Below are positions 1 to 28,350 of a stretch of 56,697 nucleotides of DNA, in pieces. A program made the position numbers and the translations under genes. The stretch is from a phage, in sequence record PZ513998.1; one strand, given 5' to 3'. Each line of letters begins with the position of its first letter. Positions within the stretch are counted from its first letter, which is position 1. Below the pieces are notes generated by a model, which was not told the DNA's origin, searched no databases, and worked only from the letters and a program-made list of their open reading frames with translations.

Positions 1-180
1 ATGGTGATCAGGGAAAAGAAAAACTGGTATTATTGTTCATGCGGTAAGCCGTTTAGATCTGAGGCTCGCAGTAGTAACGGGCTAGTTTTGTTTCGATTAA
101 AGTGCGTATCCTGTGGGATATATTCACCGTGGCGCGGTTCAATTGGGCTATGTGTAGCGACGCTTGACAGCACCACGTAA
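1..180 (+). CDS. hypothetical small Cys-rich protein (zinc-ribbon-like CxCG ... CxxCG)
   Basis: 59-codon ATG..TAA ORF at window start, below the ORF-track size cutoff; translation MVIREKKNWYYCSCGKPF...KCVSCGIY; its first 7 nt ATGGTGA repeat the last 7 nt of ORF 181-546. Confidence 0.3.
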   Translation: MVIREKKNWYYCSCGKPFRSEARSSNGLVLFRLKCVSCGIYSPWRGSIGLCVATLDSTT

Positions 181-546
181 ATGGGTAACTCAGTAAATTG
201 TTTCAAATTTTATGAGGTTTGTAATGAGTTTCTAAATCTACCGGTAGTGGCTATCGGGAGGCCTAGCAACGATTTATCATTACCGGAATTTAATTACTCT
301 TATGGCGTGGTGTTCCATGTTAACAACAAGTTGCTTAGAGTCCTAACCGTCCGATATTCTTATGGACACCGGAGGGCATACGTTAGGATCGACGACGTAA
401 GAACGGATTACCCTAATGTCACTTATCCGGTTTACGAGCCGGTTCTTTTCTCGGGGGAGATCGCCGGCGAATGGATACGAGGCGCAAAAAATTTATACCG
501 GAGTTATAGGGACACGCTAACGAACGTAAGGGGGTCTGTATGGTGA
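181..546 (+). CDS. hypothetical protein
   Basis: 121-aa frame-1 ORF; no motif recognised; lies between the two halves of the portal gene if the window is circularised. Confidence 0.3.
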   Translation: MGNSVNCFKFYEVCNEFLNLPVVAIGRPSNDLSLPEFNYSYGVVFHVNNKLLRVLTVRYSYGHRRAYVRIDDVRTDYPNVTYPVYEPVLFSGEIAGEWIRGAKNLYRSYRDTLTNVRGSVW

Positions 547-1671
547 ATGAAATCAATCAAGGAACTTGTCGCGAGAAGTGCGAACAATCCCCCGGAGGTT
601 AAAGCACAAGGCGGTTATGAGGGTGCTCAGCGAAACTCGCGAGAAATGTATCGCTGGACGCCCGCAATAGTCTCTCCGGATCAGGAATTAGACGGCGGAC
701 AAAAAGAATTAGCCGATGCCCGGGTTCAAAACGTTATCCAGAATGACGGTTTTGCGTCCGGTGCCGTATCGATACATCGAGATAATATCGTCGGCTCTCA
801 ATACATGCTAAACGCTAAGCCGAATTTGTCCGCGCTAGGACTAAAAGGAGCTGACGCCGAAGCATGGGAGGAGGAGTTTCAAGACGTCGTAGAGTCGAAA
901 TTCAACGTGGCTGCGGACTCAACGGAAAACTGGTTTGATGTCACACGACGCAATTCTTTTACCGGCTTGGTTCGCCTCGCGGTGGCCCAAGCACTGATTT
1001 CCGGTGAAGTATTGGCATCGGCAGAATGGTCAAGAACCGCAGGTCGTCCTTTCAATACGGCCATTCAAATGATTAGCCCGCATCGACTGAGCAACCCGAA
1101 TAACTCGGCCAACACGAAAAACATTCGAGGCGGTGTTCATGTCGATGCGTTCGGACGACCAATCGGGTACTACATTCAAAACAGTTTCCCGGGAGAGAGT
1201 TTAATCAACGGTGAGAATCAAATGTGGCGATATGTTCCATCACGCAAACCGTGGGGACGTCGACAGGTTATTCACATCATGGAGCAAATTCTCCCGCACC
1301 AAAATCGCGGTATCTCAGACATGGTTGCAGCATTGAAGACCATTAGAATGACTAAGAACTTTCAGGAGATAACGCTACAAAACGCGGTAATCAATGCCTC
1401 GTATGCAGCCGCAATTGAGTCGGAGCTACCACCGGAAGCCGTTTACGCTCAGTTAGGTTTAGGGCAACGTCCGTTCGGCGAGATTATCCATGAGATGATG
1501 ACGAACGCAGCATCGTACTACGCGACTGCTAAAAACATGGAAATAGACGGCGCCAAGATCCCGCATTTAATGCCCGGCACTAAGTTGAACTTAAAACCGA
1601 TGGGGACTCCCGGCGGGATCGGCACGGACTTTGAGGAGTCGTTACTACGCCACATCGCAGCATCGTTATAA
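547..1671 (+). CDS. portal protein, lambda gpB family, N-terminal ~70% (ends at in-frame TAA)
   Basis: 374 aa colinear with lambda B from the N-terminus to the ...SLLRYIAAGL region (motifs MISPHRLSNPNN, NAVINASYAAAIESEL, AKIPHLMPG, SLLRHIAASL); homologs continue past this point; continuation found at 56182-56697. Confidence 0.8.
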   Translation: MKSIKELVARSANNPPEVKAQGGYEGAQRNSREMYRWTPAIVSPDQELDGGQKELADARVQNVIQNDGFASGAVSIHRDNIVGSQYMLNAKPNLSALGLKGADAEAWEEEFQDVVESKFNVAADSTENWFDVTRRNSFTGLVRLAVAQALISGEVLASAEWSRTAGRPFNTAIQMISPHRLSNPNNSANTKNIRGGVHVDAFGRPIGYYIQNSFPGESLINGENQMWRYVPSRKPWGRRQVIHIMEQILPHQNRGISDMVAALKTIRMTKNFQEITLQNAVINASYAAAIESELPPEAVYAQLGLGQRPFGEIIHEMMTNAASYYATAKNMEIDGAKIPHLMPGTKLNLKPMGTPGGIGTDFEESLLRHIAASL

Positions 1672-1947: not shown

Positions 1948-4014
1948 ATGGCTAAATACAAAAATCTCTTTGAGATCGCGGTCAAGATGTCGGATAACTT
2001 ACGACCCCCGGAAAGGTTGACCGTTTCTAATGCAGCATCTCAATATCGATATGTAAATTCTCCCGGGTCGTATGTAGGCCCGTGGTTGAATACAACAACG
2101 CCGTATATGGTCGAACCAATGGACGTATTAACTTCGCGCAATCACAGCAAGATGGCGTTTGTAGGCCCGGCACAGTCAGGTAAAACCGACGCGATTATCA
2201 TTAATGGCGTGTCATACTCAATCAAAGTCTCACCGATGGATACAATGGTATTCTGTCCGACAATGGCAGCCGCCCGAGACTTTTCTATGCGACGTATTGA
2301 TCGTCTTCACCGACACAGCCCGCTAATCGGCGAGCAATTGTTGAAAGGTAGAGACACCGACAATAAATTCGATAAACAATACATTACAGGTATGATGTTA
2401 ACTATCACATACCCTACCGTGACCGAATTGGCCGGACGACCGGTTCCAAGAATATTGATGACCGACTTTGACCGTATGGACGACGATATCGGCGGTGATG
2501 GTAATCCATTTGACTTGGCAACACAGCGTACAACAACCTTTGGTTCGTTTGCTATGACTATGGCCGAATCGTCCCCGTCGAGAGAGATTCTTGACCCGCA
2601 CTGGATAGCTAAGTCACCGCATGAGGCTCCGCCGTGTACCGGTATTATTGCGCTTTACAACCGTGGGGATAGACGACGTTGGCAATGGCCGTGTCCTCAC
2701 TGTGACGAATATTTCGAGGGTAAATTCGAGCATCTAACGTGGGACAACGGAAAACAGCTATCTAACCGAGAGAAAGCAGAAACCGTACAAATGGTATGCC
2801 CGGAATGTGGTTGTTTGATCCACCCCGACGAACGCTTTGAAATGAATTTATTCGGAGTGTGGGTTCCGGAGGGTTGTAAAGTTGATAAGAGCGGGAGACT
2901 TACGGGCAAAGCCCCTCATACCGACTTCATTTCTTACTGGCTCCGCGGTACGGCAGCCGCCTTTACGACATGGCAAAAACTGGTAAACATCTACCTCGAT
3001 GCCCTTGACGAATATCAACGGACGTACTCAGAAGAAGCCTTGAAGAAATTCTGGAATAACAACATGGGTGAGCCGTATCAGCCTAAGTCGTTAGAATCAG
3101 TCCGCGCACCGGAAGCACTGAAAAGCCGGTCATCAGATTACCCGCTAGGCATGGTTCCGAATGACGTTCGATTCCTCGTAGCAACGATAGACGTTCAATT
3201 GAATAGCTTCGTAGTACAGGTGTTCGGTATTTCCCCGGGTTCACCGTATGACACTCATGTTATAGACCGGTTCTTCATCAACAAGTCGGAGCGTAAGGAC
3301 GAAGACGGCGACGCAATGATCTTACAGCCGGCGACATACGAAGAAGACTGGAAACTTATCGAAAAACAGGTAATAGATAAAGAGTATCCGTTGTCAGACG
3401 GTAGCGGTAGAATGATGTCAATTAAGATGACCGGTTGTGACTCCGGGGGTAAATCTGGCGTAACCGGCATGGCATACGCGTTCTATCGATATTTGAAGAC
3501 AAAGAATAAACATGCTCGCTTCATCTTATTGAAAGGTGGCACACGAGTAACAGACCCGAGAACCCGTATTAGCTATCCGGACTCTAACCGGAAAAACGAT
3601 AAGAATGCAGCTAGAGGAGAAATCCCGGTATTATTCTTAAACTCGAACTTGTTGAAAGACGCATTAAACGGACGACTAGATTGTATTGAGCCTCACAAGG
3701 GCTATTATAATATGACTAGGGAATTACCGGACGAATTTTTCTCGGAGCTATGCGCCGAAACGAGAACCGCGAAAGGTTGGGAGAATTTAGCGCAAGCCCG
3801 AAACGAAGCATGGGACTTAAGCTACTACTGTTTGGGCCTTTGTACGTCTCCGGAGTTATTACGAGTAGAGTCGATAAATTGGGACAACCCCCCAACGTGG
3901 GCGGAGGAATGGGATAATAATACGATGGTCAGGGAACCCGAGGAAGAAAAACCATTCGCCTTTCAACCTCGACCGATGTTAGACTTTAGCCGTTTAGGTG
4001 AACTATTAGGATAG
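1948..4014 (+). CDS. terminase large subunit (GpA family)
   Basis: 688 aa; Walker A-like FVGPAQSGKTDA; Cys pairs CPHCDEYF...CPECGC typical of GpA zinc ribbon; adjacent to Nu1-like, gpW-like and portal genes; first 8 nt ATGGCTAA repeat 4592-4599. Confidence 0.8.
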   Translation: MAKYKNLFEIAVKMSDNLRPPERLTVSNAASQYRYVNSPGSYVGPWLNTTTPYMVEPMDVLTSRNHSKMAFVGPAQSGKTDAIIINGVSYSIKVSPMDTMVFCPTMAAARDFSMRRIDRLHRHSPLIGEQLLKGRDTDNKFDKQYITGMMLTITYPTVTELAGRPVPRILMTDFDRMDDDIGGDGNPFDLATQRTTTFGSFAMTMAESSPSREILDPHWIAKSPHEAPPCTGIIALYNRGDRRRWQWPCPHCDEYFEGKFEHLTWDNGKQLSNREKAETVQMVCPECGCLIHPDERFEMNLFGVWVPEGCKVDKSGRLTGKAPHTDFISYWLRGTAAAFTTWQKLVNIYLDALDEYQRTYSEEALKKFWNNNMGEPYQPKSLESVRAPEALKSRSSDYPLGMVPNDVRFLVATIDVQLNSFVVQVFGISPGSPYDTHVIDRFFINKSERKDEDGDAMILQPATYEEDWKLIEKQVIDKEYPLSDGSGRMMSIKMTGCDSGGKSGVTGMAYAFYRYLKTKNKHARFILLKGGTRVTDPRTRISYPDSNRKNDKNAARGEIPVLFLNSNLLKDALNGRLDCIEPHKGYYNMTRELPDEFFSELCAETRTAKGWENLAQARNEAWDLSYYCLGLCTSPELLRVESINWDNPPTWAEEWDNNTMVREPEEEKPFAFQPRPMLDFSRLGELLG

Positions 4015-4599
4015 ATGGCAAAGGCACCGGTAACAACAAGACGTCGTAGCAATCAGCTAGACCGTGAATCCGAGTCGATGATCTTCGACGGGGTTAACAT
4101 TACTCAGATCGCAAAGATATTTAACATGGAGCGTAGAGACGTTACGCCCAAGATCCGAGAAGTTCCTCCTTGCGGGGAACGAGGCGGGTATCCGATTTAC
4201 AAATTAAATGAAGTGGCGCCATACCTAGTAAAGCCCCTGTATGATGTCGAAACCTACATTAAGCGAATGCACCCCAACGAGCTTCCTAAAATGCTCTCTA
4301 AAGAGTTCTGGAACGGAATGAAAGCTAAGCAGGACTACGAGTTGAGAGAGGGTGAGCTATGGCCTACCGACCAAGTAGAAGCGCTAATGTCGGAGTCTTT
4401 TAAACACTTACGCATGTCATTACTCTTAGTAACGGACTCACTGGAACGTGAATCCACCCTCACCGATCATCAAAGAACCCGCATCACGGAAATGATAGAC
4501 GGCGCGCTAAATGAGATGGCGCAAACACTCGTTGAGGCATTCGGAGACCGGGCTAAGACGGAAGTCAAAGAGAGTACCGTAGGTGGCAAGAATGGCTAA
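4015..4599 (+). CDS. putative terminase small subunit (Nu1-like HTH protein)
   Basis: 194 aa; N-terminal HTH-like segment GVNITQIAKIFNMERRDVTPKI followed by GERGGYPIYKL, similar in layout to lambda Nu1; adjacent to large terminase. Confidence 0.45.
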   Translation: MAKAPVTTRRRSNQLDRESESMIFDGVNITQIAKIFNMERRDVTPKIREVPPCGERGGYPIYKLNEVAPYLVKPLYDVETYIKRMHPNELPKMLSKEFWNGMKAKQDYELREGELWPTDQVEALMSESFKHLRMSLLLVTDSLERESTLTDHQRTRITEMIDGALNEMAQTLVEAFGDRAKTEVKESTVGGKNG

Positions 4600-6123
4600 A
4601 TGCGAAAGAAATTCTCGAAACGTACGGTTGGGAAGACTAAAGTTAACCTACTTGAAGAAATCAGGAAAGGTAGAAAACTTGTTGAAAGACAACGGGAAGA
4701 CTTACACGAGTATCAAGTTGAAGCCCGACAACTGGCGCATGACATTCCATTCTGCGGATTATTCCTCGAAATGGGTATAGGCAAAACCGTAATAACCGGA
4801 ACGCTGATCGCCGACTTACTTGATAACTTTGAAGTAGATAGAGTTCTCATTATAGGCCCTCGTAGGGTGGCTAAAGTAACATGGCCGGACGAATTCATGG
4901 AGTGGGGTCATCTATGTGGGTATAAAGTAACGCCGGCAGTCGGAACACCCAAGGAAAGACTAGCGGTACTAAATAGCAATAGTCCTATCGTATCCATAAA
5001 CCGAGAGAATGTAAGCTGGCTAGTAAACTATTACAAAGGCAAGTGGCCGTTCGATATGGTGGTCATAGACGAGTCGAGTTCCTTTAAGTCTCACAAATCT
5101 AAGCGGTTTAAGGACTTAACTAAAGTCAGACCGAGGATAAAACGACTAATCGAGTTGACGGCCACCCCAAATGGCGAGGGATTTACTTCGTTCTTTTCTC
5201 AAATATATTTACTTGATTACGGTAAACGGTTCGGCCGTAGCTTCAATAAGTTTAGGGATAAATACTTCGAGTACAACCCGTATAACCACAGCATCAAGCC
5301 GAGAGAAGATACGGAGATGCGTATCTTAGAAAAGATAAAAGATATATGCGTAGTTATGCGAGCAGAAGACTATCTCGATCGAGTACCGTATGAGCCAAAG
5401 GTGATCCCGGTAAAACTCAATAAGAAGATCACCAAGGAGTATTTCGACTTCCAAAAGAATTTAGTCATGATGATACCCGAAGCGGAAAACGTCATAGTGG
5501 AAGCGCAATCGGCAGCGATACTCGCATTGAAACTGCTACAAATGTGCTCCGGCGTTATTTACAACACGTACTATGACGGGATAGATGAGAACGAGGAGCC
5601 GATAAGGAAGACCGACATCTATGATATCCACGAGGAGAAACTAGACGCGCTCGAAGTGTTTCTGGAAGAAGCAAAGGAAGCCGGAAAGAATGTTTTCCTT
5701 GGGTATCACTTTCGGTCATCACGAGAAAGAATATTAGCCCGATTCCCGGATATCGTCGAGATGGATAAAGACGGAAATAACATAAAACAATGGAACGCGG
5801 GGCGAATAAAAGTTTACATGGCACACCCTCAAAGTGCGGGGCACGGCTTGAATTTACAGCGGGGCGGACATACAATTCTTTTCTATGACATTCCGTATTC
5901 GTTCGAGAACTATGACCAATTTATCGGCCGGCTCGATAGGCAAGGTCAAAAGCACCGAGTAACAGTACACCACTTAGTTGCGGTCGGAACAAATGAAGAT
6001 GGCCGAACAGTCCAACTAGCCGACCGCCACGTTTATAACAATCTGAGACGTAAGGAAGAAAACCAAGATTGGGCCTTGAAGACCTTACGTGATCTCAGAA
6101 AAGCGATGAAAAAGGAAGTTTAG
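4600..6123 (+). CDS. SNF2-family helicase
   Basis: 507 aa; Walker A LEMGIGKTVITG, DExx box VVIDESSSF, C-terminal helicase motif QFIGRLDRQGQ; first 41 nt identical to 6371-6411. Confidence 0.8.
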   Translation: MRKKFSKRTVGKTKVNLLEEIRKGRKLVERQREDLHEYQVEARQLAHDIPFCGLFLEMGIGKTVITGTLIADLLDNFEVDRVLIIGPRRVAKVTWPDEFMEWGHLCGYKVTPAVGTPKERLAVLNSNSPIVSINRENVSWLVNYYKGKWPFDMVVIDESSSFKSHKSKRFKDLTKVRPRIKRLIELTATPNGEGFTSFFSQIYLLDYGKRFGRSFNKFRDKYFEYNPYNHSIKPREDTEMRILEKIKDICVVMRAEDYLDRVPYEPKVIPVKLNKKITKEYFDFQKNLVMMIPEAENVIVEAQSAAILALKLLQMCSGVIYNTYYDGIDENEEPIRKTDIYDIHEEKLDALEVFLEEAKEAGKNVFLGYHFRSSRERILARFPDIVEMDKDGNNIKQWNAGRIKVYMAHPQSAGHGLNLQRGGHTILFYDIPYSFENYDQFIGRLDRQGQKHRVTVHHLVAVGTNEDGRTVQLADRHVYNNLRRKEENQDWALKTLRDLRKAMKKEV

Positions 6124-6411
6124 ATGACTGTTAGAGAGAGCAAAGTCGAATCGGATATCCGAAAATACGCTTTGGCCCGAGGCTGGTGGGTTTCTAAATT
6201 TACTAGCCCCGGTAAACGAGGCGTACCAGACCGGATATTCATTAAAAACAGTTTTGTAGTTTTTATCGAAATCAAACGCCCCGGAGAGAAGCCGTCGAAG
6301 CAACAAGAATTACGCATGGCCGAGATGAAGCGCTACGGGGCTTTAGTATATTGGGTGGATAATTTAAACGATGCGAAAGAAATTCTCGAAACGTACGGTT
6401 GGGAAGACTAA
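6124..6411 (+). CDS. VRR-NUC domain nuclease
   Basis: 95 aa; PD-(D/E)xK-like core GVPDRIFIKNSFVVFIEIKRPGEKPSKQQ typical of VRR-NUC; classic partner of phage SNF2 helicases. Confidence 0.65.
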   Translation: MTVRESKVESDIRKYALARGWWVSKFTSPGKRGVPDRIFIKNSFVVFIEIKRPGEKPSKQQELRMAEMKRYGALVYWVDNLNDAKEILETYGWED

Positions 6412-8445
6412 GTGGAATCGAAAAGAACGTTAATTTTTGACTATGAAACATATAGCGAACTAGACATAAAGAAAGTAGGCGGTCACAAGTATGCACAGCA
6501 CCCGTCTACTGAAATTCTAATGGTAGCGTGGAAGTTTACTGACTCGGACGAAATCGGTTTTTGGGACAACACAATGCCCGAAGAAGATTTAGACGAGTTA
6601 AAGGGATATTTGCGCGACGATAACATCATAAAACGGGCATTCAACGCGCAGTTTGAGCGGTTGATCACTAAACACGTCCTAGGTATCGACACACCGTATG
6701 ACGTCTGGCGTTGTACGATGGTGGCTGCGTACCACCGAGGTTTTACCGGCGGGTTAGACATGGTTGGTAAGGCTCTAGGTTTTAAAGGGGATAAAGCAAA
6801 AGACGCAGCAGGTAAACGCCTAATTCAGAAATTTTGTAAACCAAGAAAGCCAACTAAACTCGACAAAAGTACAAGACACGATGCGGAATCACACCCGGAA
6901 GAATGGGAAGCATTCGGAGCCTATTGCCGACAAGACGTGATAGCCGAAGAAAATATCGACCGCCGTCTGAGTGACATCAAGTATGACATGATCGAATTTG
7001 AGTGGGAAGTTTACGCGTTAGACCAGAAAATTAATGACCGCGGAATAAATATCGATAACGACTTCATCGAAGCAGCAATAAAGATGGCCGAGACACGCAA
7101 GCCACAGATTATCGATGAAATGCGAGAACTTACAGGGCTAGCCAATCCCGGGTCTCAGAAACAACTATTAGCGTGGCTACAACAAGAGGGATACCCGTTC
7201 AACGACCTATTAGCTGACACCGTGAAAAAAGTCATAAACGAGTATCCGGACAATGGGATCACAGAAAAAGCGTGTCGAGTTCTTAAACTTCGTCGTAAAT
7301 CTAACAAAACCTCTCTAAAGAAATACAACAAAATGTTAGATATTGAAAACGACGACGGTAGGGTACGCGGAACAATTCAATGCTACGGGGGTTCTCGAAC
7401 CGGACGATTCGCCGGGCGGGGCTTACAAACTCACAACTTCGTAAGAACACCGAAGATACTTGAAGACGTCGAAGCTACGGAAATCGCTAAAAAGCTAGTT
7501 CTCGACCAAGACATGTGGGCTTTAAACGTTTTTGCTGGCGAACCCATGGATATGTTGCCGGGGCTACTACGATCCGCACTAATCCCAACGGTAGGTCGTC
7601 GCTTCGTTGTAGCGGACTTGTCATCAATTGAATCGGTAGTAATAGGTTGGCTTACCGGCTGTAAGTGGTTCCTAGATACCTTGCGGGCTAAAAAAGACTT
7701 ATATCGCGCATTCGCCTCAGCATGGCTAAAAATTCCTTACGAAGACACCCTCCCATTCCGAGGAAAGGCAAAACCGGCCACACTAGGTTGCGGATATCGA
7801 CTAGGCGGTGGCGAACTTATTGACGGTAAGAAAACCGGACTTTGGGGTTACGGTGAAAACATGGGAGTCATGCTAACACAAGAGGAGGCTCACGCTTCGG
7901 TAGACGCATTCCGAGAGTTGTGCCCTGAGATTGTTGACGGTTGGTATAAACTTGAAGATTGCGTAAAAACCACCATTAAGACGCACAAGACAACCCGATG
8001 GAGATCGTTAGTATTCGGGTTTAAAAAACCGTTCTTATGGATTAAGTTGCCATCGGGGCGGAAACTTTATTACTACCGCCCACGCTTAGTAACAAACACC
8101 TACAAGAACCGCAGAGGTGAGACGTACACTCGTCAAGAAATAATGTACGAGGGTAAAAAAGATCAAGGCGGTTGGGGTGTTCAAACCACGCACGGCGGGA
8201 AATTGATTGAGAATATCGTTCAAGCCATAGCAAGAGATGTCCTAGTAAACGGCATGTTTAATGCGGAAGAAATAGGTTTCGATATCGTATTCCACGTTCA
8301 CGATGAAATCATAACGGAAGTCGACGAAGATGACCTGTTAGGGCTAGACGACCTCATTGATTGTATGGCAGCACCGATATCGTGGGCGCCGGGACTACCA
8401 TTAGGAGCAGCAGGGTGGGAGGGGTATTTTTACCGTAAAGATTAA
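6412..8445 (+). CDS. DNA polymerase, family A-like with 3'-5' exonuclease domain
   Basis: 677 aa, GTG start; exo motif FDYETYSE, motif A-like VADLSSIESVV, motif B-like RGKAKPATLGCGYRLG, motif C HVHDEI. Confidence 0.75.
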   Translation: MESKRTLIFDYETYSELDIKKVGGHKYAQHPSTEILMVAWKFTDSDEIGFWDNTMPEEDLDELKGYLRDDNIIKRAFNAQFERLITKHVLGIDTPYDVWRCTMVAAYHRGFTGGLDMVGKALGFKGDKAKDAAGKRLIQKFCKPRKPTKLDKSTRHDAESHPEEWEAFGAYCRQDVIAEENIDRRLSDIKYDMIEFEWEVYALDQKINDRGINIDNDFIEAAIKMAETRKPQIIDEMRELTGLANPGSQKQLLAWLQQEGYPFNDLLADTVKKVINEYPDNGITEKACRVLKLRRKSNKTSLKKYNKMLDIENDDGRVRGTIQCYGGSRTGRFAGRGLQTHNFVRTPKILEDVEATEIAKKLVLDQDMWALNVFAGEPMDMLPGLLRSALIPTVGRRFVVADLSSIESVVIGWLTGCKWFLDTLRAKKDLYRAFASAWLKIPYEDTLPFRGKAKPATLGCGYRLGGGELIDGKKTGLWGYGENMGVMLTQEEAHASVDAFRELCPEIVDGWYKLEDCVKTTIKTHKTTRWRSLVFGFKKPFLWIKLPSGRKLYYYRPRLVTNTYKNRRGETYTRQEIMYEGKKDQGGWGVQTTHGGKLIENIVQAIARDVLVNGMFNAEEIGFDIVFHVHDEIITEVDEDDLLGLDDLIDCMAAPISWAPGLPLGAAGWEGYFYRKD

Positions 8446-11484: not shown

Positions 11485-14160
11485 ATGTCTAACGTTTTCA
11501 AATCTCGTGGCCCTGAACTTTTCGACAATGGATACGAAGTCGTACCTATTACTCGTATCGACGCAACTGACAGCAAAGGGAAATTATTGTCTGGCGCGGG
11601 TAAAGCCCCGGCGTTAAAAGGGTGGCAGAAAATAGAGATCACTTCTGACATCGTTAATGAATGGGCGACGGGTAGTCGCTCTCGCTGTGGTGTGGGTATT
11701 CGTACCCACCGTAACCCTGCTGTCGATATCGACTGTTTAGACGCCGAAGCGTCAGAACACATGACGGCTTTCGTTGAGTCGGAAGTGGGCTTTGCTCCTA
11801 TCCGTGTTGGGCGTGAACCTAAAGCGCTACTCCTCTATTATACAGAACGTCCTTTCACAAAAGTAAAATCAACCATCTTCGTTGATGAAAACGGGAATGA
11901 AAACGCTGTCGAGATATTAGGAAGCGGGCAACAATTCGTTGCTTACGGTATCCACCCGGGAACTAAGAAACCGTATAAATGGGTTACTAAAGGCGAGTCG
12001 CCTGCGGAAAACCAAGCGGATTTTGACCTTGAAGAAATCACACTAGAAGACGCGAGAAAAATTATTGCGGAATTCGACCGGTATGCGAAAGAGCGCGGTT
12101 GGAAACCTTTAAAAAGTAAAAGCGGTACGGTCATCAAGCCATCTTTGGGCTACTACTTAGATGCTCCGGAAGAACTATCAGACTGGTCGGACGAGTCGGA
12201 CTTTGACGATGATGAAGACGATTGGGTCACTACTGATGATATCACCGATAAATGGGACGGTACTTACGAAGAACTTTACGAAATCTTCGAAAATGATATC
12301 GAACCATCTTACGATTACCACACTTGGATTCCTGTTCTGGCTGCACTTAAAGACGCCGAACGTGAGCCGGACGAGTTTAAAGAGATCGCGAGAATGTGGT
12401 CTGCTCGGGCCGAGGAGTCTTTCGATAACGATGCCTTTGAAGATAAATGGGAAAACGGTAATTTCAATCGTGTTGGTAAATACGCTAAGACATTACGAGG
12501 AGTAATTGCCGAAGCGGAAAAGATCCAAGGCGTTCGCGAAATTGAGGACGTAGTTATACCTTTATTCGAAAAAGCTACTGACTTGGCCGAGTGGACTTTA
12601 GCTGCCGACCGCCTACGTGAAACGTGGGCTTTCGGTTTAGAAAGAGAGACGGCCATAAACATTGCTTGCGAAAAGTATAAGAAAGTCACTAACGGGTTAA
12701 AACTTACGGACGTTCAAAAGAAACGATATCTTAGTATCGATTACTCTCTCTTTGACGCTCCCGAATGGTTGGCTCCTTGGGTTTATTGTACTACGGATAA
12801 CGAGTTTATTAACTTAGACAATAGAACCAGAATGAACCCTAAATCTTTCGCGAATGCCTATAACCGAGAAACTGTGAAGAAATTCGGGGTAGCTGCGGAC
12901 GTTTTCGCCACGGTTGAAAGACCCGTTCCTGTTATCCACGATACGATGTATTACCCGTTGATGCACGGTGAGATGCCTAAGAACAAATGGAAGCGGGTTC
13001 CGGGTATTAATGACAAGCGTGTTTTCGAATACAACGGTTTGACGTTCTTAAATACCTTTGACCATCGTTCCATGCCTGAGACCGCAACAAAAATTTCGAC
13101 CGCTGGATATAAGGCGATCGGGGAGGTAAAACGATACTTCGAAATACAGTATCCAGATCCAGACGAACGAAGACATGCGATGGACTGGATCGCGTGGGTT
13201 ATCAATAATCCTGTTAGAAAGATTAACTATATGCTTCTCGTTCTTGGTGGTCAGGGTTCCGGTAAAACCATCGTTAAGAAGTTTATGGAACACATGCTCG
13301 GCTCTGATAACGTCTCTACGATTTCGAATAAGGTTATCCATGGTAATTTTACCGGGTGGCAGTCTGGTCACATGCTCAAAGTTATTGAGGAAATATCGGT
13401 GAGTGGTCATCGCTACGACGTTATGAACTCATTGAAAGAGCCGATATCGAATGAAACGTTACAGATCGAAGCGAAGTACCGTGACCCACGCCAGTGTGTG
13501 AATACTTCGTCGTATATGGCATTTACCAATGATGTTGGTGCTTTGCCTCTTACATCAAGTGACCGTCGCTTCTTGTTAGTTCGTAGTGCGTTCCAGCACA
13601 AGCGTGAAGTCACTGAATACCTACGGAAAGACCCTAATTACTTTAAACGGTTTGAGAAAGCCTTTACTAAACACGCACCGGAGATCCGCAAATGGTTTAG
13701 CGAGTGGGAGTATTCCGAGGGCTTCAAACACGATGGTAACGCTCCTGAAACGGTGAGTATGGGAAGCATGTCTTTAGCGTCAGAAGACGATTTCACCTCC
13801 GTAGTAATGGGGGCCGTAGATGATTGTGAGAAAGAGTTAGAATTTACATCGGGGATCACAGACGAAGTAATTTTCATTCCATCGGCAGTAGATTTAGTCC
13901 GAGATAGGTCTAAGGTTCCTAACGGGAAAATAATATATCGCATACTCGCTGAATATGGTTTCTTCCGGCCTGTGGATTCTCGTACACAAATAAGATTTAA
14001 TGACGTAAGAGGACAAGTTGTTGTCGCGAATAGACATAAATGGCTCTATCCTGATGGGAGTGTCAACGTAGATAAGATTAAAGAGCATTTAGAGGAGAAC
14101 GAACGCCGGGTAGAAGAACAAGAAAGCAAGAGAGAGTTAGAAGAAACTGACGTTTTCTAA
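11485..14160 (+). CDS. DNA primase-polymerase (prim-pol) fused to D5/P-loop helicase
   Basis: 891 aa; N-terminal prim-pol-like segment (GKAPALKGW, VGIRTHRNPAVDIDCLD, EILGSGQQFVAYGIHP); C-terminal Walker A LVLGGQGSGKT. Confidence 0.75.
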   Translation: MSNVFKSRGPELFDNGYEVVPITRIDATDSKGKLLSGAGKAPALKGWQKIEITSDIVNEWATGSRSRCGVGIRTHRNPAVDIDCLDAEASEHMTAFVESEVGFAPIRVGREPKALLLYYTERPFTKVKSTIFVDENGNENAVEILGSGQQFVAYGIHPGTKKPYKWVTKGESPAENQADFDLEEITLEDARKIIAEFDRYAKERGWKPLKSKSGTVIKPSLGYYLDAPEELSDWSDESDFDDDEDDWVTTDDITDKWDGTYEELYEIFENDIEPSYDYHTWIPVLAALKDAEREPDEFKEIARMWSARAEESFDNDAFEDKWENGNFNRVGKYAKTLRGVIAEAEKIQGVREIEDVVIPLFEKATDLAEWTLAADRLRETWAFGLERETAINIACEKYKKVTNGLKLTDVQKKRYLSIDYSLFDAPEWLAPWVYCTTDNEFINLDNRTRMNPKSFANAYNRETVKKFGVAADVFATVERPVPVIHDTMYYPLMHGEMPKNKWKRVPGINDKRVFEYNGLTFLNTFDHRSMPETATKISTAGYKAIGEVKRYFEIQYPDPDERRHAMDWIAWVINNPVRKINYMLLVLGGQGSGKTIVKKFMEHMLGSDNVSTISNKVIHGNFTGWQSGHMLKVIEEISVSGHRYDVMNSLKEPISNETLQIEAKYRDPRQCVNTSSYMAFTNDVGALPLTSSDRRFLLVRSAFQHKREVTEYLRKDPNYFKRFEKAFTKHAPEIRKWFSEWEYSEGFKHDGNAPETVSMGSMSLASEDDFTSVVMGAVDDCEKELEFTSGITDEVIFIPSAVDLVRDRSKVPNGKIIYRILAEYGFFRPVDSRTQIRFNDVRGQVVVANRHKWLYPDGSVNVDKIKEHLEENERRVEEQESKRELEETDVF

Positions 14161-14294
14161 ATGTTGTACAAAAATCACCCAACACACATGATCGAATTAC
14201 CTTTATATAGCTTATATATATATTTTTCTATTTTTCCTTTCCTATCTATTTTTTCTTTCTTCTGGAATTTCTATTTTATTATCTATTACTGTGT

Positions 14295-14350
14295 TTGCTG
14301 TGTCAGAAAGAAAGTAATATAGTTGCTGTGTCAGAAAGAAAGTAATATAG
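14295..14350. repeat. tandem direct repeat, 2 x 28 bp (TTGCTGTGTCAGAAAGAAAGTAATATAG)
   Basis: two perfect adjacent copies at 14295-14322 and 14323-14350, inside an AT-rich stretch. Confidence 0.9.
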
Positions 14351-15090
14351 TAAAAACAATAACTTACCTTGGAACACCTATTGGAACATCAGCCGGCACA
14401 GCAATTTCCTGTGACACACCACCAGCCATGGTAATACCTAAAACGGCGCATAACTATTTGATATTATTACGGAATTACCTAAAATACCGGTCATTACGGT
14501 AAATGATGTCCCCTATTGCTAAAGCCTGTGCGTCGCTCTCCGTGCTTTCTAGAGAAGAATCACTTTTAAATCGAAAAAGGTACTTGGACGAGTTGTCCGG
14601 TTGGGCGGGGGTGCGCAGAGCCGTCTTCCAGAAATTTGTCCGGGATCTGCCATAGATGTTTGGGTGTTCGGGTGGGCGGTGTTGTGGGTTAGATGTGCTT
14701 CAAATTGTAAGCGTGTGCGATTGTGCGAGGCGATCGCGGTGTTAGTTGTCGGTCGTATCCGTTGAGCGGGGGTATAGCGCCTCGGGTGAACACGCCGATC
14801 GGGAACGTCGTTTTTACGTTTTGTGCGGGTGTTCGGGTGTGCGGTTGTACCGCATGACGTTTTTACAAATATAAATGCGGTCGCGCCAGCGCCTACCCAC
14901 CCAACACCACCACCCCAAGCCCTCACTCTCCCCCATTCCCCCCCACCCTATGGAAAATTGCCGTAAAGCCATGTGTTGCGTCCTCAGCGTGTTTTGCCCG
15001 CTAGGTAAGGCCGATGTATTACCTACGATGAGTTATGCCCGTGTGGTTCGATTGAGGGCGGAAGACGGCGCTTTGTTTGTTCCGACTTAA

Positions 15091-15330
15091 ATGAGCATTC
15101 TCAAGATGCTACTCTCCGGTGTGTACAACGTGGGCGCCGTGTGTTTCTTCGGCCTAATTTCGATTTATATTCTCTCGTTCTTTTTCCGCGCCCTACAAAA
15201 CCACGGTTTCGACGGTCTACACCGCACTACGTTAGTTCTCGAATCAATCGGCGCTATCATGATGGTCGTCTTCATGGTTTGCGTTGCGATCTTGGTGTTC
15301 GCCGGAGGCGTCGCCCTAACAATCCGGTAG
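15091..15330 (+). CDS. hypothetical small membrane protein (2 predicted TM helices)
   Basis: 79 aa; hydrophobic stretches GAVCFFGLISIYILSFFF and IGAIMMVVFMVCVAILVFAGGVAL. Confidence 0.3.
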   Translation: MSILKMLLSGVYNVGAVCFFGLISIYILSFFFRALQNHGFDGLHRTTLVLESIGAIMMVVFMVCVAILVFAGGVALTIR

Positions 15331-17613: not shown

Positions 17614-17835
17614 ATGAAGCCGGTAAATAATCCAACCTTGGATAAGACGATCGAGATTTACCAAGAGCGAGGCGAAAATATTTATTACGTTGTTGCGGGC
17701 GGTGTATGGATCGGGACGATTGCCAAGACACCACACCACCTCAAGCCGTGGACTTTCTGCGGGCAAGGTGTGAGCCTTGGCGGGGATTCCTTGGAAATGG
17801 TTAAAAAATCCGTGGTTACGATGCTCACACGGTAA
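17614..17835 (+). CDS. hypothetical protein
   Basis: 73-aa ORF. Confidence 0.25.
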   Translation: MKPVNNPTLDKTIEIYQERGENIYYVVAGGVWIGTIAKTPHHLKPWTFCGQGVSLGGDSLEMVKKSVVTMLTR

Positions 17836-18477
17836 ATGAGACGCGTTGATCCTAAAGACTGTTTAGACATAATCCTAAACTACCATTATGCGAAACGTCG
17901 ACCTAGCATATCTTACGCTTTCGGGTTCTTCGAAGACGAGGAGCTTGTCGGGGTTCTAACTATCGGTAAGCCGGCCAGCAACCCGCTATGTGTTGGAATA
18001 TTGGGCGAGGAGTACAAAAGCCACGTTTTTGAGTTAAACCGACTTTGTTTTATTCGTCCAATCCGTAACGCTCCGTCGCAGTTGATCGCCTTCGCTATGG
18101 CTGAGTTGAAAAGTGAAAACCTTGTCATCGTGTCGTATGCGGATCGCGGTATGAACCACAACGGATATATTTATCAAGCGTCTAATTTCATCTACACGGG
18201 GGCGACGAAAGCGCGCACCGATAAATACACGGAGCAAGGTAAACACTCTCGGCATTATCAAGGAAAGGAAAGCAAGACGTATCGACAAGTCAGAACATCT
18301 AAGCATCGTTACGTTTATTTTACGGGGAGCCGTTCGGTCGTGAAGAAGTATAAAAAGTTGCTTCGATATCCGGTATTGCCTTATCCCAAGGAAGAAAATA
18401 AAAATTATGTGCTCGGATCCGAGTACAAGCAAGAACTCGTTAAGATTAAAGGGGGAGAAAATGAAGCCGGTAAATAA
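17836..18477 (+). CDS. hypothetical protein, possibly GNAT-fold / Mom-like modification enzyme
   Basis: 213 aa; pattern NYHYAKRRP...YAFGFF...GVLTIGKPASNPL...ELNRLCF...LVIVSYAD...HNGYIYQASNF recalls acyltransferase-like phage proteins; recall-based and weak. Confidence 0.25.
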   Translation: MRRVDPKDCLDIILNYHYAKRRPSISYAFGFFEDEELVGVLTIGKPASNPLCVGILGEEYKSHVFELNRLCFIRPIRNAPSQLIAFAMAELKSENLVIVSYADRGMNHNGYIYQASNFIYTGATKARTDKYTEQGKHSRHYQGKESKTYRQVRTSKHRYVYFTGSRSVVKKYKKLLRYPVLPYPKEENKNYVLGSEYKQELVKIKGGENEAGK

Positions 18478-19425: not shown

Positions 19426-19995
19426 ATGGCAGAATTAGCATACACTAAAGCGTCTATCTTCCAATCTATCGTTGATGATGTTAGTACGGGTCTACCTAAA
19501 GGAACTTCATTAGATACCCGCGGAGATTTCGAAAATCAATTACGCGACCTTTTCGAAGAAAATAATCTTATGAATGCGCCGGAATGTATCAGCGTCGACT
19601 ACTTCGGGGAAGCATGGGAGATCGTCCAGTCTAGCGAGTTTGATTCTGTTGAGCTAGAAACGCCTTTAGATTTCAGCGGGTGCAAAAGTTCATTAAAATG
19701 TTTGATGATGGAAGCTAACGCATTAATAAGCGCGTCTTGGCGTGAACAAGTGGAAGCCTACATCGAAGAACTGGCCGAAGCACTGGAAGAAGTTGTCGAG
19801 GGTTGCGAGGAGTTCGGAACAATCGACGAACTGGTAATCACTGGCGGGTGCCGTTTCGGTCACATTCCACACCTAAGAGAGTTCGATGCTGGCGACTTTT
19901 CTGTGTGCATGTGGGCGCCGAACGAAGCCGGAGAGTCTGAAATTTATTATAATTTCCGAGGTCTGGAACTGCGCGGGGTTGTATATCATGGGTAA
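19426..19995 (+). CDS. hypothetical acidic protein
   Basis: 189-aa ORF. Confidence 0.3.
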   Translation: MAELAYTKASIFQSIVDDVSTGLPKGTSLDTRGDFENQLRDLFEENNLMNAPECISVDYFGEAWEIVQSSEFDSVELETPLDFSGCKSSLKCLMMEANALISASWREQVEAYIEELAEALEEVVEGCEEFGTIDELVITGGCRFGHIPHLREFDAGDFSVCMWAPNEAGESEIYYNFRGLELRGVVYHG

Positions 19996-20373
19996 GTGGA
20001 CGGTGTGACATACTTTTCATCAGTTCCTAAAGATACCAATTCACGCCGGGCGAGATCCCGGCTTTCTTCGTTCTTGAGTCCGCACGAAAAAGAGTTACAA
20101 CTATCTACGCACGACATACAGACTATTTTAAACCTAGCTAATGCGTTTTACTTCCGAGCTGATCCGGAGAGTAAACCGGCTTACTCAGACAACAAAACTA
20201 TTGTAAGCCTTCGCATATCCGGAATAGTCGAAGATGATCGGGGCTGGCTCATTATCCGCCGGCATTTCCTTAATTCTGGTCAGTGCTGGAAGACGTTGCA
20301 CTTAGAGGTTATTTTTACCCACATAGAAAATCTGACCTTATGTGAGTGTAAAATTCCCTATTTCCCCGATTGA
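19996..20373 (+). CDS. hypothetical protein
   Basis: 125-aa ORF, GTG start. Confidence 0.25.
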   Translation: MDGVTYFSSVPKDTNSRRARSRLSSFLSPHEKELQLSTHDIQTILNLANAFYFRADPESKPAYSDNKTIVSLRISGIVEDDRGWLIIRRHFLNSGQCWKTLHLEVIFTHIENLTLCECKIPYFPD

Positions 20374-20565
20374 ATGATGAAGAATAAAATCACATTAAAC
20401 AGCGGTATGATTTTAATCGCTGACGACGAAAAAGTTACGGTAAACGCAGACGGTTCGCTATTCTGTCCGGCGTGGGATATGCGCTTTATGTTAACTCGTA
20501 ACATTTCATATAATCGAACGGTTACACATCGAGAGGTGAAAAGTTTTGAGCGATTATACAGTTGA
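20374..20565 (+). CDS. hypothetical protein
   Basis: 63-aa ORF. Confidence 0.2.
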   Translation: MMKNKITLNSGMILIADDEKVTVNADGSLFCPAWDMRFMLTRNISYNRTVTHREVKSFERLYS

Positions 20566-20808
20566 ATGGCTAAGAAATTAAATAATTTAGAGGCTCGCGG
20601 GGCGTTTGGTTTTGTCGTCGCGTCTCTTTGTGCGGTAGGGTTCGCGGGGGCGGTGGGAACTTTGGCCGTATATGGTGATCTAACCGTCGCGCGTTTCTGT
20701 CTTTATGGGGTAGCGTTTGGGGTGGTCGGCGGGATTGCGTGGCCTGATCAGGAGAGCGGGGAGGCGTTTATATCTGCGATACGTGGGGGCGGTAATGATG
20801 AAGAATAA
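20566..20808 (+). CDS. hypothetical small membrane protein
   Basis: 80 aa; Gly/Ala-rich hydrophobic helices (FGFVVASLCAVGFAGAVGTLAVYG, VAFGVVGGIAW). Confidence 0.25.
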   Translation: MAKKLNNLEARGAFGFVVASLCAVGFAGAVGTLAVYGDLTVARFCLYGVAFGVVGGIAWPDQESGEAFISAIRGGGNDEE

Positions 20809-21233: not shown

Positions 21234-21262
21234 TCTCAGCACACAAACAAACTGATTGTACT

Positions 21263-21450
21263 TATCTACAAAAATTTCGGGCTTACTTCAAAAACCTCGC
21301 GGGCCGATGATTTTCTGTGACGATTTAAAAACTTTTCCGGCCGGCTTACTTCAAAAACCTCGCGGGCTGAAAAAATTCCCGTGAGTGAGAAATAAAAACC
21401 GGCCAATGGATTTATCTACAAAAATTAGAACCTTACTTCAAAAACCTCGC
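21263..21450 (+). repeat. three direct copies of a 19-bp motif CTTACTTCAAAAACCTCGC plus two copies of TTATCTACAAAAATT
   Basis: 19-mer at 21282-21300, 21345-21363, 21432-21450; TTATCTACAAAAATT at 21263-21277 and 21412-21426. Confidence 0.85.
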
Positions 21451-21474
21451 CGGTTGACGGAAATCCTCGGGTAA

Positions 21475-22218: not shown

Positions 22219-22539
22219 ATGAAAAATTCAAACGTAGCACTCGCCATTGATTCCGTTTTGGTAAAAAAGAAAATTGATATTATCCCGGTTTTTAAATCGT
22301 TAGAGGAAGAATATCAAATGCGGATACAAGCGTCGTGGTCAGGCATCACCGCGCACACGCCAGAACGACGCATCTACACCCACGGCCACCCGACTACTAA
22401 GATGGCAACAACACCGGAACAACGTACAACGTATCGCCTCCGTCTATTGAAATTCCTACGGTGGCTCTACGCGAACAACTACACAACGGGGCCACTGTTA
22501 GAAATCAAATCGTGGCTAGAGGAGCAAGAGGAATGGTAA
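22219..22539 (+). CDS. hypothetical protein
   Basis: 106-aa ORF. Confidence 0.3.
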   Translation: MKNSNVALAIDSVLVKKKIDIIPVFKSLEEEYQMRIQASWSGITAHTPERRIYTHGHPTTKMATTPEQRTTYRLRLLKFLRWLYANNYTTGPLLEIKSWLEEQEEW

Positions 22540-22887
22540 ATGGTAAAGGTCTTATACAACAGCGAACAAGCGCAAGTAAACCAGTTGCGAGACCAGATTA
22601 AATCGCACACTGAGTCGTTTGAAACAGCGATGGCCGAAGTCGACCAGATCATTAAAGAAAATATCGAGACATACCTAAACGATATATCCGGGTTAATGAT
22701 GTCGATAGTTAGAGTGTATGACAACGCGGAGATTGAGGACAAAGCGGTGGCCTTAGATCTTGTTCACTCTAAAGCGGTAACTCGTTTAGCTGCTATCGAA
22801 GATAAGAGCATAGAACTACGCGCCCATATTGAAAACTTAGTATCCACCATTAAAACCGGAGTGATTAAAAACAATGAAACCATTTGA
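22540..22887 (+). CDS. hypothetical protein
   Basis: 115-aa ORF, predicted helical. Confidence 0.3.
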   Translation: MVKVLYNSEQAQVNQLRDQIKSHTESFETAMAEVDQIIKENIETYLNDISGLMMSIVRVYDNAEIEDKAVALDLVHSKAVTRLAAIEDKSIELRAHIENLVSTIKTGVIKNNETI

Positions 22888-23976
22888 ATGAAACCATTTG
22901 ATAAATTTATTGCTTTTGCAATATCTGAACCAGCAGACCCTAACAATACGACTTCGTTTTCCGCATTAGCTAACGGGACAGAAGACCAACTAAAACAACT
23001 AGGCCGAGAACTAGAAACAAGCCTGAGAAACTTACCGATCGGAGACCCAAGCGCTATGCAGTGGACGCGCCACGGTTTTGCTAAACCCGACGAGAACGCC
23101 GAACCGATCACCGTTGTAGATGAAGTCCTAGGGGACATGGAAGACACACCATACGTTATGATAGACGAAGCGGGTAAATATCTTGTGTTCACTTTCGAAG
23201 AACGTGCTCGAATGCTAAGCCCGACAACGATCAAGGACGAATTAGAGGTTAAAGTAAAAGATTGGATAGAACGAGTTGGTGACACCCCGACAAAACGTGA
23301 ACGTAATGATATGCGCGATGAAATCATCAATGACTTGTTGCCAAAGGCCACAATAAAGCGCACCAAGACATACGCCATGATCATCAAGGGTGTTCTTATT
23401 GTCTTCGCCGGTAGCAATAACATCGGTGAAAAAGTAGCATCGGCCGTAAGAAAGGTAGTAGGGTCTCTCCCAGTAGTACCATGGTTTGAGCATTCGGCCC
23501 TCATTACGGAGTTTCTAAAGAAAATCGCTACGGTAGACTTTGACCCGGAAGATGCAGTAGGCCAAGCGCTAGATAAATTTGAGATTGTCCGTAGTGCTAA
23601 AGTCTCCGCTGAAACCGGTGCGTACACTTTCAAAGATGTTTTTGACATCACGAATGACGTTTCCTTCAAAGAAGCGCTAGGACAAACTAACGGATACTCA
23701 TACCCTCTCGGGATCACCGAAGCGAATTTAGAATTACGACATGACGCCACAGACAGCCCTATCGGTTTTGTTCTTACGGCCAAAGGCGTTTTAAAGAGCG
23801 TAAATTGGAATGACGAGCCGGAAAATATTTTCGACGACTCAGTGTTTGACACGAACGAGGAACGGGAGCGTGCTCGATTTATTTTCTCTACGTGGGACGC
23901 TTACACCTTAGTTACGGCCGTGCTAGGAGCGCTACACAACGCAAACGCAAACCGATTTGTAGAAGACGATATGTAA
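22888..23976 (+). CDS. RdgC-like recombination-associated protein
   Basis: 362 aa; segment KRERNDMRDEIINDLLPKA...AVRKVVGSLPVVPWFEHS matches the RdgC core (…LKDEVLHSLLPRAF…LLRKSLGSLPVVPLSMEN). Confidence 0.6.
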   Translation: MKPFDKFIAFAISEPADPNNTTSFSALANGTEDQLKQLGRELETSLRNLPIGDPSAMQWTRHGFAKPDENAEPITVVDEVLGDMEDTPYVMIDEAGKYLVFTFEERARMLSPTTIKDELEVKVKDWIERVGDTPTKRERNDMRDEIINDLLPKATIKRTKTYAMIIKGVLIVFAGSNNIGEKVASAVRKVVGSLPVVPWFEHSALITEFLKKIATVDFDPEDAVGQALDKFEIVRSAKVSAETGAYTFKDVFDITNDVSFKEALGQTNGYSYPLGITEANLELRHDATDSPIGFVLTAKGVLKSVNWNDEPENIFDDSVFDTNEERERARFIFSTWDAYTLVTAVLGALHNANANRFVEDDM

Positions 23977-25764: not shown

Positions 25765-26211
25765 ATGACCGAGCACAAGAAATTAACCCGCGTGTACGGC
25801 GCTAACCTTTGTACTTTTTGCGGTAGAGCATGGGAAGACGGAGAAGAAATCCCCGATTGCGTTGCGCCCCAAGAGGAGGTTCAAAAAACACGCAAGAAAT
25901 TTTTCCGGGCATACTTCCCGGCGCCAACCCACTTTACCGCATGGTTGTTATATGGGAATAACGGTAAAGCGATGGTCGCCTATGCGGATCATCGGGAGGT
26001 GGCTTTACGCATCGGGTATTATTGGACGAGAAACAGAAAAGATATTGTAAAGGTAGAAGAATCGGCGGAGCTAACCCGTTTTGCTGTTTGGCAATCCGTA
26101 CCCTATATTGAGATTAATCCGGTAATTATTAATAAACTAAACCAGTTAAGCAAAAAAGGGGATAACATAATAATATCTCCCGCTAATTTTAAAAAGGCCA
26201 TTTATGACTAA
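25765..26211 (+). CDS. hypothetical protein
   Basis: 148-aa ORF. Confidence 0.3.
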   Translation: MTEHKKLTRVYGANLCTFCGRAWEDGEEIPDCVAPQEEVQKTRKKFFRAYFPAPTHFTAWLLYGNNGKAMVAYADHREVALRIGYYWTRNRKDIVKVEESAELTRFAVWQSVPYIEINPVIINKLNQLSKKGDNIIISPANFKKAIYD

Positions 26212-26844
26212 ATGACTAAGTTAGATGAAGTACGCAAATTATCATACTCGTTCAAACTGCCCGAAGATGTCCGAGAGGGAACCTATGTAGTTTTACGCTT
26301 CGAATCTGAGGTAGGAAAGTGGTATCAGAACGCAAATATTGTTAGCTATATGCTCGGTGTTATCAGCCACACTACTAAGACACAATTCCAAGTTTCTTGT
26401 GAGGGTTTATCCTCCCCGATGCGTTTCGGGCGCGATGGCGGTATCCGCGCAGACAGCAAGGGACAAGTTGGTGGCGCACTAAGAACGTCAGTATTCCTTG
26501 CCGGTAGTGCAGATACCGCAGAAGAATACATCAAGGGCCAAGTAGAACAACACAACGACCCCGAAGTAGTAAGACGCGAGCCAACGTTCCACTTAAAAAA
26601 TGCTGACGATTTGATAGGTATCATCGTCAAGCTGGACAAGCTGATAAACGATGCGACAACGCTATGGGGCGCAATACCTGAAAAATGGAAAGGCCGAGAG
26701 CAACGACGTAGCCGAAACGACCGAATACCGCATGATATGTTAGTAGCGATCTTGTGTAATCCGGACGCATCGGACATATTAGCAGACCTATTTAAGTCCA
26801 TAGCTAAAGCATTCGGAGTATCAACCAAAAAAGAGGAAGAATGA
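26212..26844 (+). CDS. hypothetical protein
   Basis: 210-aa ORF. Confidence 0.3.
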   Translation: MTKLDEVRKLSYSFKLPEDVREGTYVVLRFESEVGKWYQNANIVSYMLGVISHTTKTQFQVSCEGLSSPMRFGRDGGIRADSKGQVGGALRTSVFLAGSADTAEEYIKGQVEQHNDPEVVRREPTFHLKNADDLIGIIVKLDKLINDATTLWGAIPEKWKGREQRRSRNDRIPHDMLVAILCNPDASDILADLFKSIAKAFGVSTKKEEE

Positions 26845-27816: not shown

Positions 27817-28350
27817 ATGGATCATAAGTACAAGGTTTCGGACAGGAATACCGTCGCCCGAGTAGTGGGCCGTCATCGCCAATGGTGCGACGCATACGTT
27901 GAGGTAAAACGTATCGTTCGTGAAATGTCCGAAAAAGGGATAACCGATCTGGAAGTTGACGCGATGCCGATCCACGCGCACCTAAACCGGATTGCTGGTT
28001 TCAACTCATTTTTTGCCAACACTCAAAACGAATGGTGGCTAAGATTTAGACCATTTGAAGCCTACCCACAAGATAACGGGAAGACGCTAATTAAGTACCG
28101 CGACTCCCACCCGTGTAACATCTGGCGAAAAGTAGAAAAGATGGAATTCGACCGAGAAGATTTAGAACGAAGAATAAGTCGTATCGAACAAATATTACAA
28201 GGACAGCCGGAAACAATCGCATACGATAGAAAAGTATTTCGAATTCGTAGAACACAAGAATTATCTCAAACCGGCATGTCAAACCGAAAAGCGAGAAAAA
28301 TCGCATGGGAGGAAGCCGGTAGAGAATTCCCGGGAGAAGACCATGTTTGA
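27817..28350 (+). CDS. hypothetical protein
   Basis: 177-aa ORF. Confidence 0.3.
   Translation: MDHKYKVSDRNTVARVVGRHRQWCDAYVEVKRIVREMSEKGITDLEVDAMPIHAHLNRIAGFNSFFANTQNEWWLRFRPFEAYPQDNGKTLIKYRDSHPCNIWRKVEKMEFDREDLERRISRIEQILQGQPETIAYDRKVFRIRRTQELSQTGMSNRKARKIAWEEAGREFPGEDHV

Follow-up and report, generated by a model that had tools for sequence, protein, structure and literature searches.

The question raised by this stretch of DNA is why short segments at the junctions of its genes occur twice, letter for letter, once at the start of one ORF and once at the end of another. The longest such segment comprises the first 41 nt of a SNF2-family helicase ORF (4600-6123; segment 4600-4640), which return as the last 41 nt of a VRR-NUC-like endonuclease ORF (6124-6411; segment 6371-6411). 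A sequence-only reading had taken this and five further duplications for overlapping native genes that had been exported as separate CDS strings and abutted, and all six duplications proved to be exact, with the two 41-nt copies read in different phases (41 mod 3 = 2). We read the window, that is, the whole 56,697-nt stretch analysed, greedily in frame from its first base, restarting after each stop codon. It resolved into 85 abutting plus-strand ORFs, here called tiles, with 0 intergenic bases. In 84 of the 85 tiles the first codon is ATG, GTG or TTG (72, 7 and 5 tiles, respectively), and tile 85 begins with AAC.

By exact string matching on either strand, 84 of the 85 tiles were found to be 100% identical to Escherichia phage E21 (MN604053.1 / NC_052983.1; 58,536 bp, circular; Casjensviridae, Lavrentievavirus), and the sole non-exact one, tile 3, differs from E21 by one added TAA. 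When five tiles (1948-8445, 6.5 kb) were aligned with E21 by megablast, the identity was 99.9%, in 5 pieces, one per tile. The gene calls overlap 29 times in E21, always on the same strand and never by a length divisible by 3, and these overlaps sum to 277 nt. Starting from the genome length, removal of 2,119 intergenic nucleotides and addition of 277 duplicated ones and of 3 more gives the length of the window exact to the base (58,536 − 2,119 + 277 + 3 = 56,697). A model of CDS export thus reproduces this length to the base. The duplications are not physical. We regard it as nearly certain that the window is a computational concatenation of 85 predicted E21 CDSs and no natural stretch of DNA. 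Because the CDSs were pasted end to end, each stretch common to two overlapping gene calls was written twice, as the sequence-only reading had supposed. The duplications are thus an artefact of data preparation and the property of no genome, and their biological interest is low.

The way in which the copies are arranged can be followed through a simple mechanism. The CDSs are set down in the order of their record coordinates, each in its own coding sense and with nothing between them, and bases shared by two overlapping calls close the upstream gene at its 3' end and, written again, open the downstream one at its 5' end. Which of the two genes comes first depends on the strand: on the minus strand it is the downstream gene, which lies lower in the record, and on the plus strand the upstream one. 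In E21, the genes lie in alternating strand blocks, with 57 tiles on the minus strand (tiles 1-2, 3-12, 19-30, 33-38 and 59-85) and 28 on the plus strand (tiles 13-18, 31-32 and 39-58). In every pair, the downstream gene comes first in the window when the genes are on the minus strand and the upstream gene when they are on the plus strand. It had been predicted that the order of the copies would give the native gene order and that the parent genome would carry genes on both strands, and both predictions were borne out.

All copies are given here on the plus strand of the window. Among the minus-strand pairs, the 41-nt segment corresponds to E21 5585 to 5545. An 8-nt segment, ATGGCTAA, lies at 1948-1955 and 4592-4599, at the start of the large terminase tile and at the end of the small-terminase tile (4015-4599; record 3482 to 3475), and a 7-nt segment at 1-7 and 540-546 is shared by tiles 1 and 2 (record 19875-20413). 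The 4-nt ATGA occurs at 54904-54907, where the S49 prohead protease starts, and at 56694-56697, where the portal gene ends in tile 85 (record 58024 to 58021), and a 19-nt segment links the start of tile 74 (49711-49869; segment 49711-49729) to the end of tile 75 (49870-49965; segment 49947-49965; record 51458-51476). Tandem copies of 38 nt (29894-29931 and 29932-29969; record 31288-31325) stand where tile 56 ends and tile 57 starts, both genes being on the plus strand. Beyond these six, there are 10 further duplications of at least 7 nt (28, 17, 14, 14, 11, 11, 8, 8, 8 and 7 nt). Five are tandem and belong to plus-strand genes: 28 nt at 14295-14322 and 14323-14350, between the end of tile 17 and the start of tile 18 (record 14212-14239); 14 nt at 22874-22901, between the end of tile 44 and the start of tile 45; 7 nt at 22533-22539 and 22540-22546 (tiles 43/44); and 8 nt each at 26204-26219 (tiles 49/50) and 28343-28358 (tiles 53/54). 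The others are 17 nt at 17614-17630 and 18461-18477 (tile 28 start, tile 29 end), 14 nt at 20374-20387 and 20795-20808 (tile 35 start, tile 36 end), 11 nt at 51607-51617 and 52727-52737 (tile 78 start, tile 79 end), 11 nt at 49859-49869 and 45379-45389 (tile 74 end, start of the tape-measure gene in tile 73) and 8 nt at 181-188 and 19988-19995 (tiles 2 and 33). The negative record gaps between consecutive tiles equal the lengths of the duplications in the window (41, 38, 28, 19, 17, 14, 14, 11, 11, 8 and so on).

The construct resembles a CDS multi-FASTA export, in which start-to-stop records in coding sense are ordered by coordinate, overlaps are repeated, intergenic DNA is left out and partial CDSs stand at the ends of the record. 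It differs from such an export in having two tiles out of order, a TAA on a CDS truncated at its 3' end, and 85 calls against 64 deposited ones. The truncated CDS is tile 3 (547-1671), which holds the N-terminal 374 codons of the portal gene (record 1..1122, reverse-complemented) and after them, at 1669-1671, a TAA that is absent from the genome. The C-terminal 171 codons and the stop are in tile 85 (56182-56697; record 58536 to 58021). In E21, the codon after the native part of tile 3 is AAC, the first codon of tile 85, and the Pfam profile Phage_portal_2 is divided between the two tiles, with positions 2-320 matched by tile 3 and positions 322-353 by tile 85. Tiles 3 and 85 are the two halves of one 545-codon portal gene cut at the arbitrary origin of the record, and the TAA is invented. 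The gene calls probably come from a permissive caller working ab initio, which took the record as linear and so split the gene, and a later step may have put a TAA on the CDS that had no stop.

Tiles 3-85 ascend in record coordinates, while tiles 1-2 (1-546; record 19875-20413, minus strand) are out of sequence, having been moved to the front from their native place between tiles 32 and 33; the consistent tile order expected of a concatenation of CDSs is broken by these two. No PHROG family was found for tile 1 or tile 2, and a tRNA as the reason for their displacement was found nowhere in E21. A plain export in record order accounts neither for tiles 1-2 at the front nor for the non-native TAA.

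On the surface, a phage genome deliberately engineered to be "decompressed" or refactored, along the lines of T7.1 or the decompressed phiX174, would look alike, with its overlapped segments present twice and its genes free of overlap. In decompression, overlapping coding regions are copied and set side by side (PMC11527146), as they are in the window, and the original internal copies are reported to have had their start codons destroyed by point mutation (PMC11527146). In the window, however, both copies are identical, ATG included, and start-codon knock-outs are absent. All 2,119 nt of intergenic DNA, promoter and RBS regions included, are gone, the minus-strand operons stand in reverse transcriptional order, and the essential portal gene is cut at an arbitrary GenBank origin, with its halves 54 kb apart. 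Such a design would be unworkable, and we consider an engineered genome extremely improbable.

That the segments are real short direct repeats of a natural genome, left by replication slippage or recombination or related to terminal-repeat-like elements at gene boundaries, would agree with copies that are exact and non-random. All exact direct repeats of at least 15 nt in the window are at tile junctions, as had been anticipated, with two exceptions: one native cluster of genuine repeats (21257-21453) and one chance-like 15-nt match (3646-3660 and 4676-4690). Yet the segments of 41, 38, 28, 19 and 17 nt, present in two copies in the window, have one copy in E21, and every duplicated segment is single-copy in this 100%-identical source. 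In ten relatives (97.7-98.4% identity), the region matching the 6,498-nt query is likewise 6,451 nt long, as expected of a single-copy layout. Moreover, every repeat opens at the start codon and closes at the stop codon of abutting tiles, in a window that has no intergenic bases. E21 and the other Lavrentievavirus genomes differ from the window in carrying each overlap once, in having genes on both strands and in possessing roughly 2.1 kb of intergenic DNA, of which the window has none. Natural repeats are, in our view, a most unlikely source of the duplications.

Another possibility is that short gene ends, constrained in composition, match by chance. The sequence-only reading had proposed an all-against-all match of tile ends, and in our comparison the 3' end of each tile was set against the 5' ends of the remaining 84. 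Suffix/prefix matches of at least 7 nt numbered 16, with 14 among 168 ordered neighbour pairs and 2 among 6,972 non-neighbour pairs (Fisher p = 1e-21), and all of the neighbour matches are native overlaps of gene calls in E21. One of the two non-neighbour matches (19988-19995 and 181-188) is a true native 8-nt overlap in E21 as well; the other, of 8 nt, again ATGGCTAA (4592-4599 and 20566-20573), joins tiles 6 and 36, whose genes are not adjacent in the genome. Chance does hold for this last match and for the 4-nt class, ATGA, GTGA or TTGA being common to 223 tile pairs, but for all other matches of at least 7 nt it is refuted by the excess among neighbours. Within the window alone, the ATGA pair of the protease and the portal gene is at chance level; in E21 it is a real overlap (record 58021-58024) that is also drawn in GenBank.

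The concatenation of CDSs being the preferred reading, it can be asked whether the overlaps are those of native genes. Short same-strand overlaps of start and stop codons, such as ATGA and TAATG, occur in operons of prokaryotes and phages and are linked to translational coupling. The overlaps in E21 are similar, being all on the same strand and, in 14 of 29 cases, of 1 or 4 nt, and the start/stop overlaps of tightly packed phage operons would be the native source of the duplications. The GenBank and RefSeq records of E21 hold 64 CDSs each, with identical coordinates. Compared with these, 48 tiles are identical, 16 agree in the stop but not in the start, and 21 have no counterpart. The tiles are not the GenBank annotation, given its 64 CDSs, the 16 other starts and the 21 extra tiles, nor a RefSeq re-annotation, whose coordinates are the same as those of GenBank, nor the longest ORFs, since the most upstream start is used in 59 of 84 only.

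Because the deposited annotation has overlaps of only 1 and 4 nt (among them five 4-nt ATGA overlaps, including that of portal and protease), every duplication of at least 7 nt depends on gene calls that are not deposited. The large terminase, of GpA type by Pfam, illustrates this: its tile starts 39 nt upstream of the GenBank start, and the 8-nt terminase overlap exists only with the start of the tile. The gene that ends there, at 4599, is annotated in GenBank as small terminase by position; it had been labelled Nu1-like, a label we did not recover, DUF1441 (58.2 bits) being its only Pfam match up to E = 1. The description of the pairs as native overlapping genes stands for the 4-nt ATGA cases, one of which involves the protease tile, a Peptidase_S49, probably stands for the 41-nt pair as well, and is wrong for the 19-nt pair. 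Overlaps as long as 28-41 nt exceed those usually seen, and most of them hang on where the caller placed a start or on small ORFs that are doubtful. In the 38-nt pair, tile 56 is a nucleoside 2-deoxyribosyltransferase in RefSeq, and tile 57 is a 33-aa ORF absent from GenBank with a weak PHROG match (phrog_1470, E 4e-5); this may or may not be a native gene overlap. For the 28-nt pair a native overlap is doubtful: tiles 17 and 18 are small ORFs absent from GenBank, and a search of PHROG found no family for them.

If the parent sequence is restored by merging the overlaps, as the sequence-only reading had suggested, RBS spacing should become natural. Shine-Dalgarno-like motifs were present upstream of 31 of 83 genes in the native context and of 18 of 83 in the window, a difference in the expected direction that is nonetheless modest (p = 0.04). 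By strand, the motifs numbered 19 against 9 of 55 for minus-strand genes and 12 against 9 of 28 for plus-strand genes.

These results are a matter of data hygiene more than of biology. In the window all junctions are artificial, such as 4599|4600 and 6411|6412, the latter joining the stop of the endonuclease directly to the GTG of the polymerase. Regulatory DNA amounting to 2.1 kb is absent, operons of the minus strand read backwards, and the portal gene stands in two parts, one of them capped by an invented stop. Scans of it for repeats, promoters, terminators, intergenic RNAs, gene order, strand asymmetry or GC skew are analyses of a pasted construct, and other findings drawn from it need to be read again against the real genome, MN604053.1. 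As by-products, two corrections of the E21 annotation emerge, one of the start of the SNF2 helicase, provided that its overlap is genuine, and one for an unannotated, predicted frameshifted tail chaperone.

The helicase tile merits its label, with Pfam SNF2-rel_dom at 34.8 bits over a gathering score of 24.9 (residues 54-281) and Helicase_C slightly under its cut-off (21.3 vs 23.5). The label given to its neighbour fared less well in Pfam, where VRR_NUC remains under the gathering score (15.7 vs 23.8 bits, E 0.016), and yet the tile is a clear endonuclease by PHROG (phrog_93 "endonuclease", E 1e-27); GenBank names it "putative VRR-NUC domain-containing protein". The native ORF in the helicase frame opens at record 5588, and the only ATG, GTG or TTG codons before motif I in this frame are ATG 5585, the start of the tile, and ATG 5414, the GenBank start. 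The latter falls within the Walker A motif, LEMGIGKT, whose M it encodes. As the SNF2-rel_dom alignment begins at residue 54, upstream of this M, it supports the start of the tile over the deposited one. In a tblastn search with the first 87 residues of the helicase, the alignments in >600 phage records began somewhere between about residues 8 and 36, and the RefSeq record of Proteus phage PM87 (NC_052981.1), another Lavrentievavirus, draws an identical 41-nt overlap of endonuclease and helicase. In the distant Klebsiella phage Salado, homology runs into the 3' end of the endonuclease, yet there a downstream ATG also precedes motif I.

Judged from these alignments and start codons, the 41-nt overlap of endonuclease and helicase is probably real in the phage. 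It would permit translational coupling from the endonuclease to the helicase, and we lean towards, without insisting on, the view that this out-of-frame overlap is genuine, is conserved in Lavrentievavirus and couples the translation of the two replication/recombination proteins. If the overlap is genuine, the helicase start deposited for E21 in GenBank and RefSeq is 57 codons too far downstream.

The 19-nt pair belongs to a different situation, upstream of the tape-measure gene. Tile 76 matches Pfam Pre_tape_measure and has, near its 3' end and in the zero frame, a slippery A AAA AAG heptamer (50331-50337). Between record positions 51683 and 51318, from the slip site to the stop of tile 74 at the tape-measure gene, the −1 frame is uninterrupted. 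A conceptual 234-aa fusion of tiles 76 and 74 matches phrog_11703 from end to end (positions 1-232 of 232, E = 9e-64); tile 74 by itself accounts for positions 183-232 only. The heptamer of the X XXY YYZ type, the open −1 frame and the full-length family homology that go with a −1 frameshift chaperone of the lambda G/GT type are all present. From its sequence, tile 74 is the C-terminal fragment of the extension that a −1 frameshift is predicted to add to the tail chaperone. No PHROG family was found for tile 75, a call without support, and its 19-nt overlap with tile 74 is a mis-call over the predicted frameshift, which the gene caller had not modelled. The predicted frameshifted tail chaperone is missing from the E21 annotation. 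The 11-nt overlap of the extension with the start of the tape-measure gene would be real if the predicted GT protein is made.

The tail assembly chaperone region (window 49711-50418) carries a predicted -1 programmed frameshift of the lambda G/GT type, so far unannotated, which is modelled neither by the gene call of the window nor by the GenBank/RefSeq annotation of the parent genome, Escherichia phage E21 (MN604053.1). The candidate slip site, a slippery A AAA AAG at 50331-50337, is in frame with the chaperone, and the -1 frame stays open as far as the tape-measure start. A conceptual 234-aa chaperone fusion aligns with the full length of phrog_11703 (E 9e-64). Beside the frameshift, tile 75, the 75th of the abutting coding sequences (49870-49965), looks like a spurious call.

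We also compared the 5' part of the helicase gene (window 4600-4773; E21 record 5585-5412) with its deposited version. In GenBank/RefSeq, the E21 helicase CDS is 4062..5414 and starts at a methionine within the Walker A motif LEMGIGKT, so that 57 conserved N-terminal residues are missing from it. The longer call of the window and the annotation of the Lavrentievavirus relative Proteus phage PM87 look correct.

A 33-aa ORF at 29932-30033, not in GenBank, shares 38 nt with the nucleoside 2-deoxyribosyltransferase gene, at the 3' end of the latter. It has a weak match to phrog_1470 (TciB-like; E 4e-5) and so may be a genuine small gene. Six further ORFs of 29-71 aa (window 14161-15090; E21 record 14078-15086) are called, on both strands of E21, within a 1.4-kb stretch without GenBank annotation (13751-15160); no PHROGs family was found for the two of them compared, and the coding status of this segment is doubtful. 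Tiles 39 and 40 are tiny ORFs called on a direct repeat of about 47 nt, present in three copies at window 21257-21453 (E21 record 22367-22559) with spacings of 63 and 83 nt and the core CTTACTTCAAAAACCTCGC. The three copies lie a short way downstream of the point where leftward genes give way to rightward ones, and they resemble regulatory repeats more than coding sequence.

Among all tiles, only tiles 1-2 (window 1-546; E21 record 19875-20413) break the record order. Their native place is between tiles 32 and 33 (window 19425|19426), and the identity of 181-188 with 19988-19995 reflects 8 nt that they truly share with tile 33 in E21. The N-terminal half of the portal gene, truncated at its 3' end, is closed by a TAA (1669-1671) that is absent from E21, whose portal ORF runs on with AAC at this point; this AAC is the first codon of the last window tile (56182).

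Matches to window 1948-8445 included the records 'Enterococcus phage AS-M1_NWU' and 'Staphylococcus phage SVV09-A', about 98% identical to the Proteus/Escherichia phage group. Gram-positive hosts are implausible for both, and such identity under these host names suggests mis-assigned hosts or contamination.
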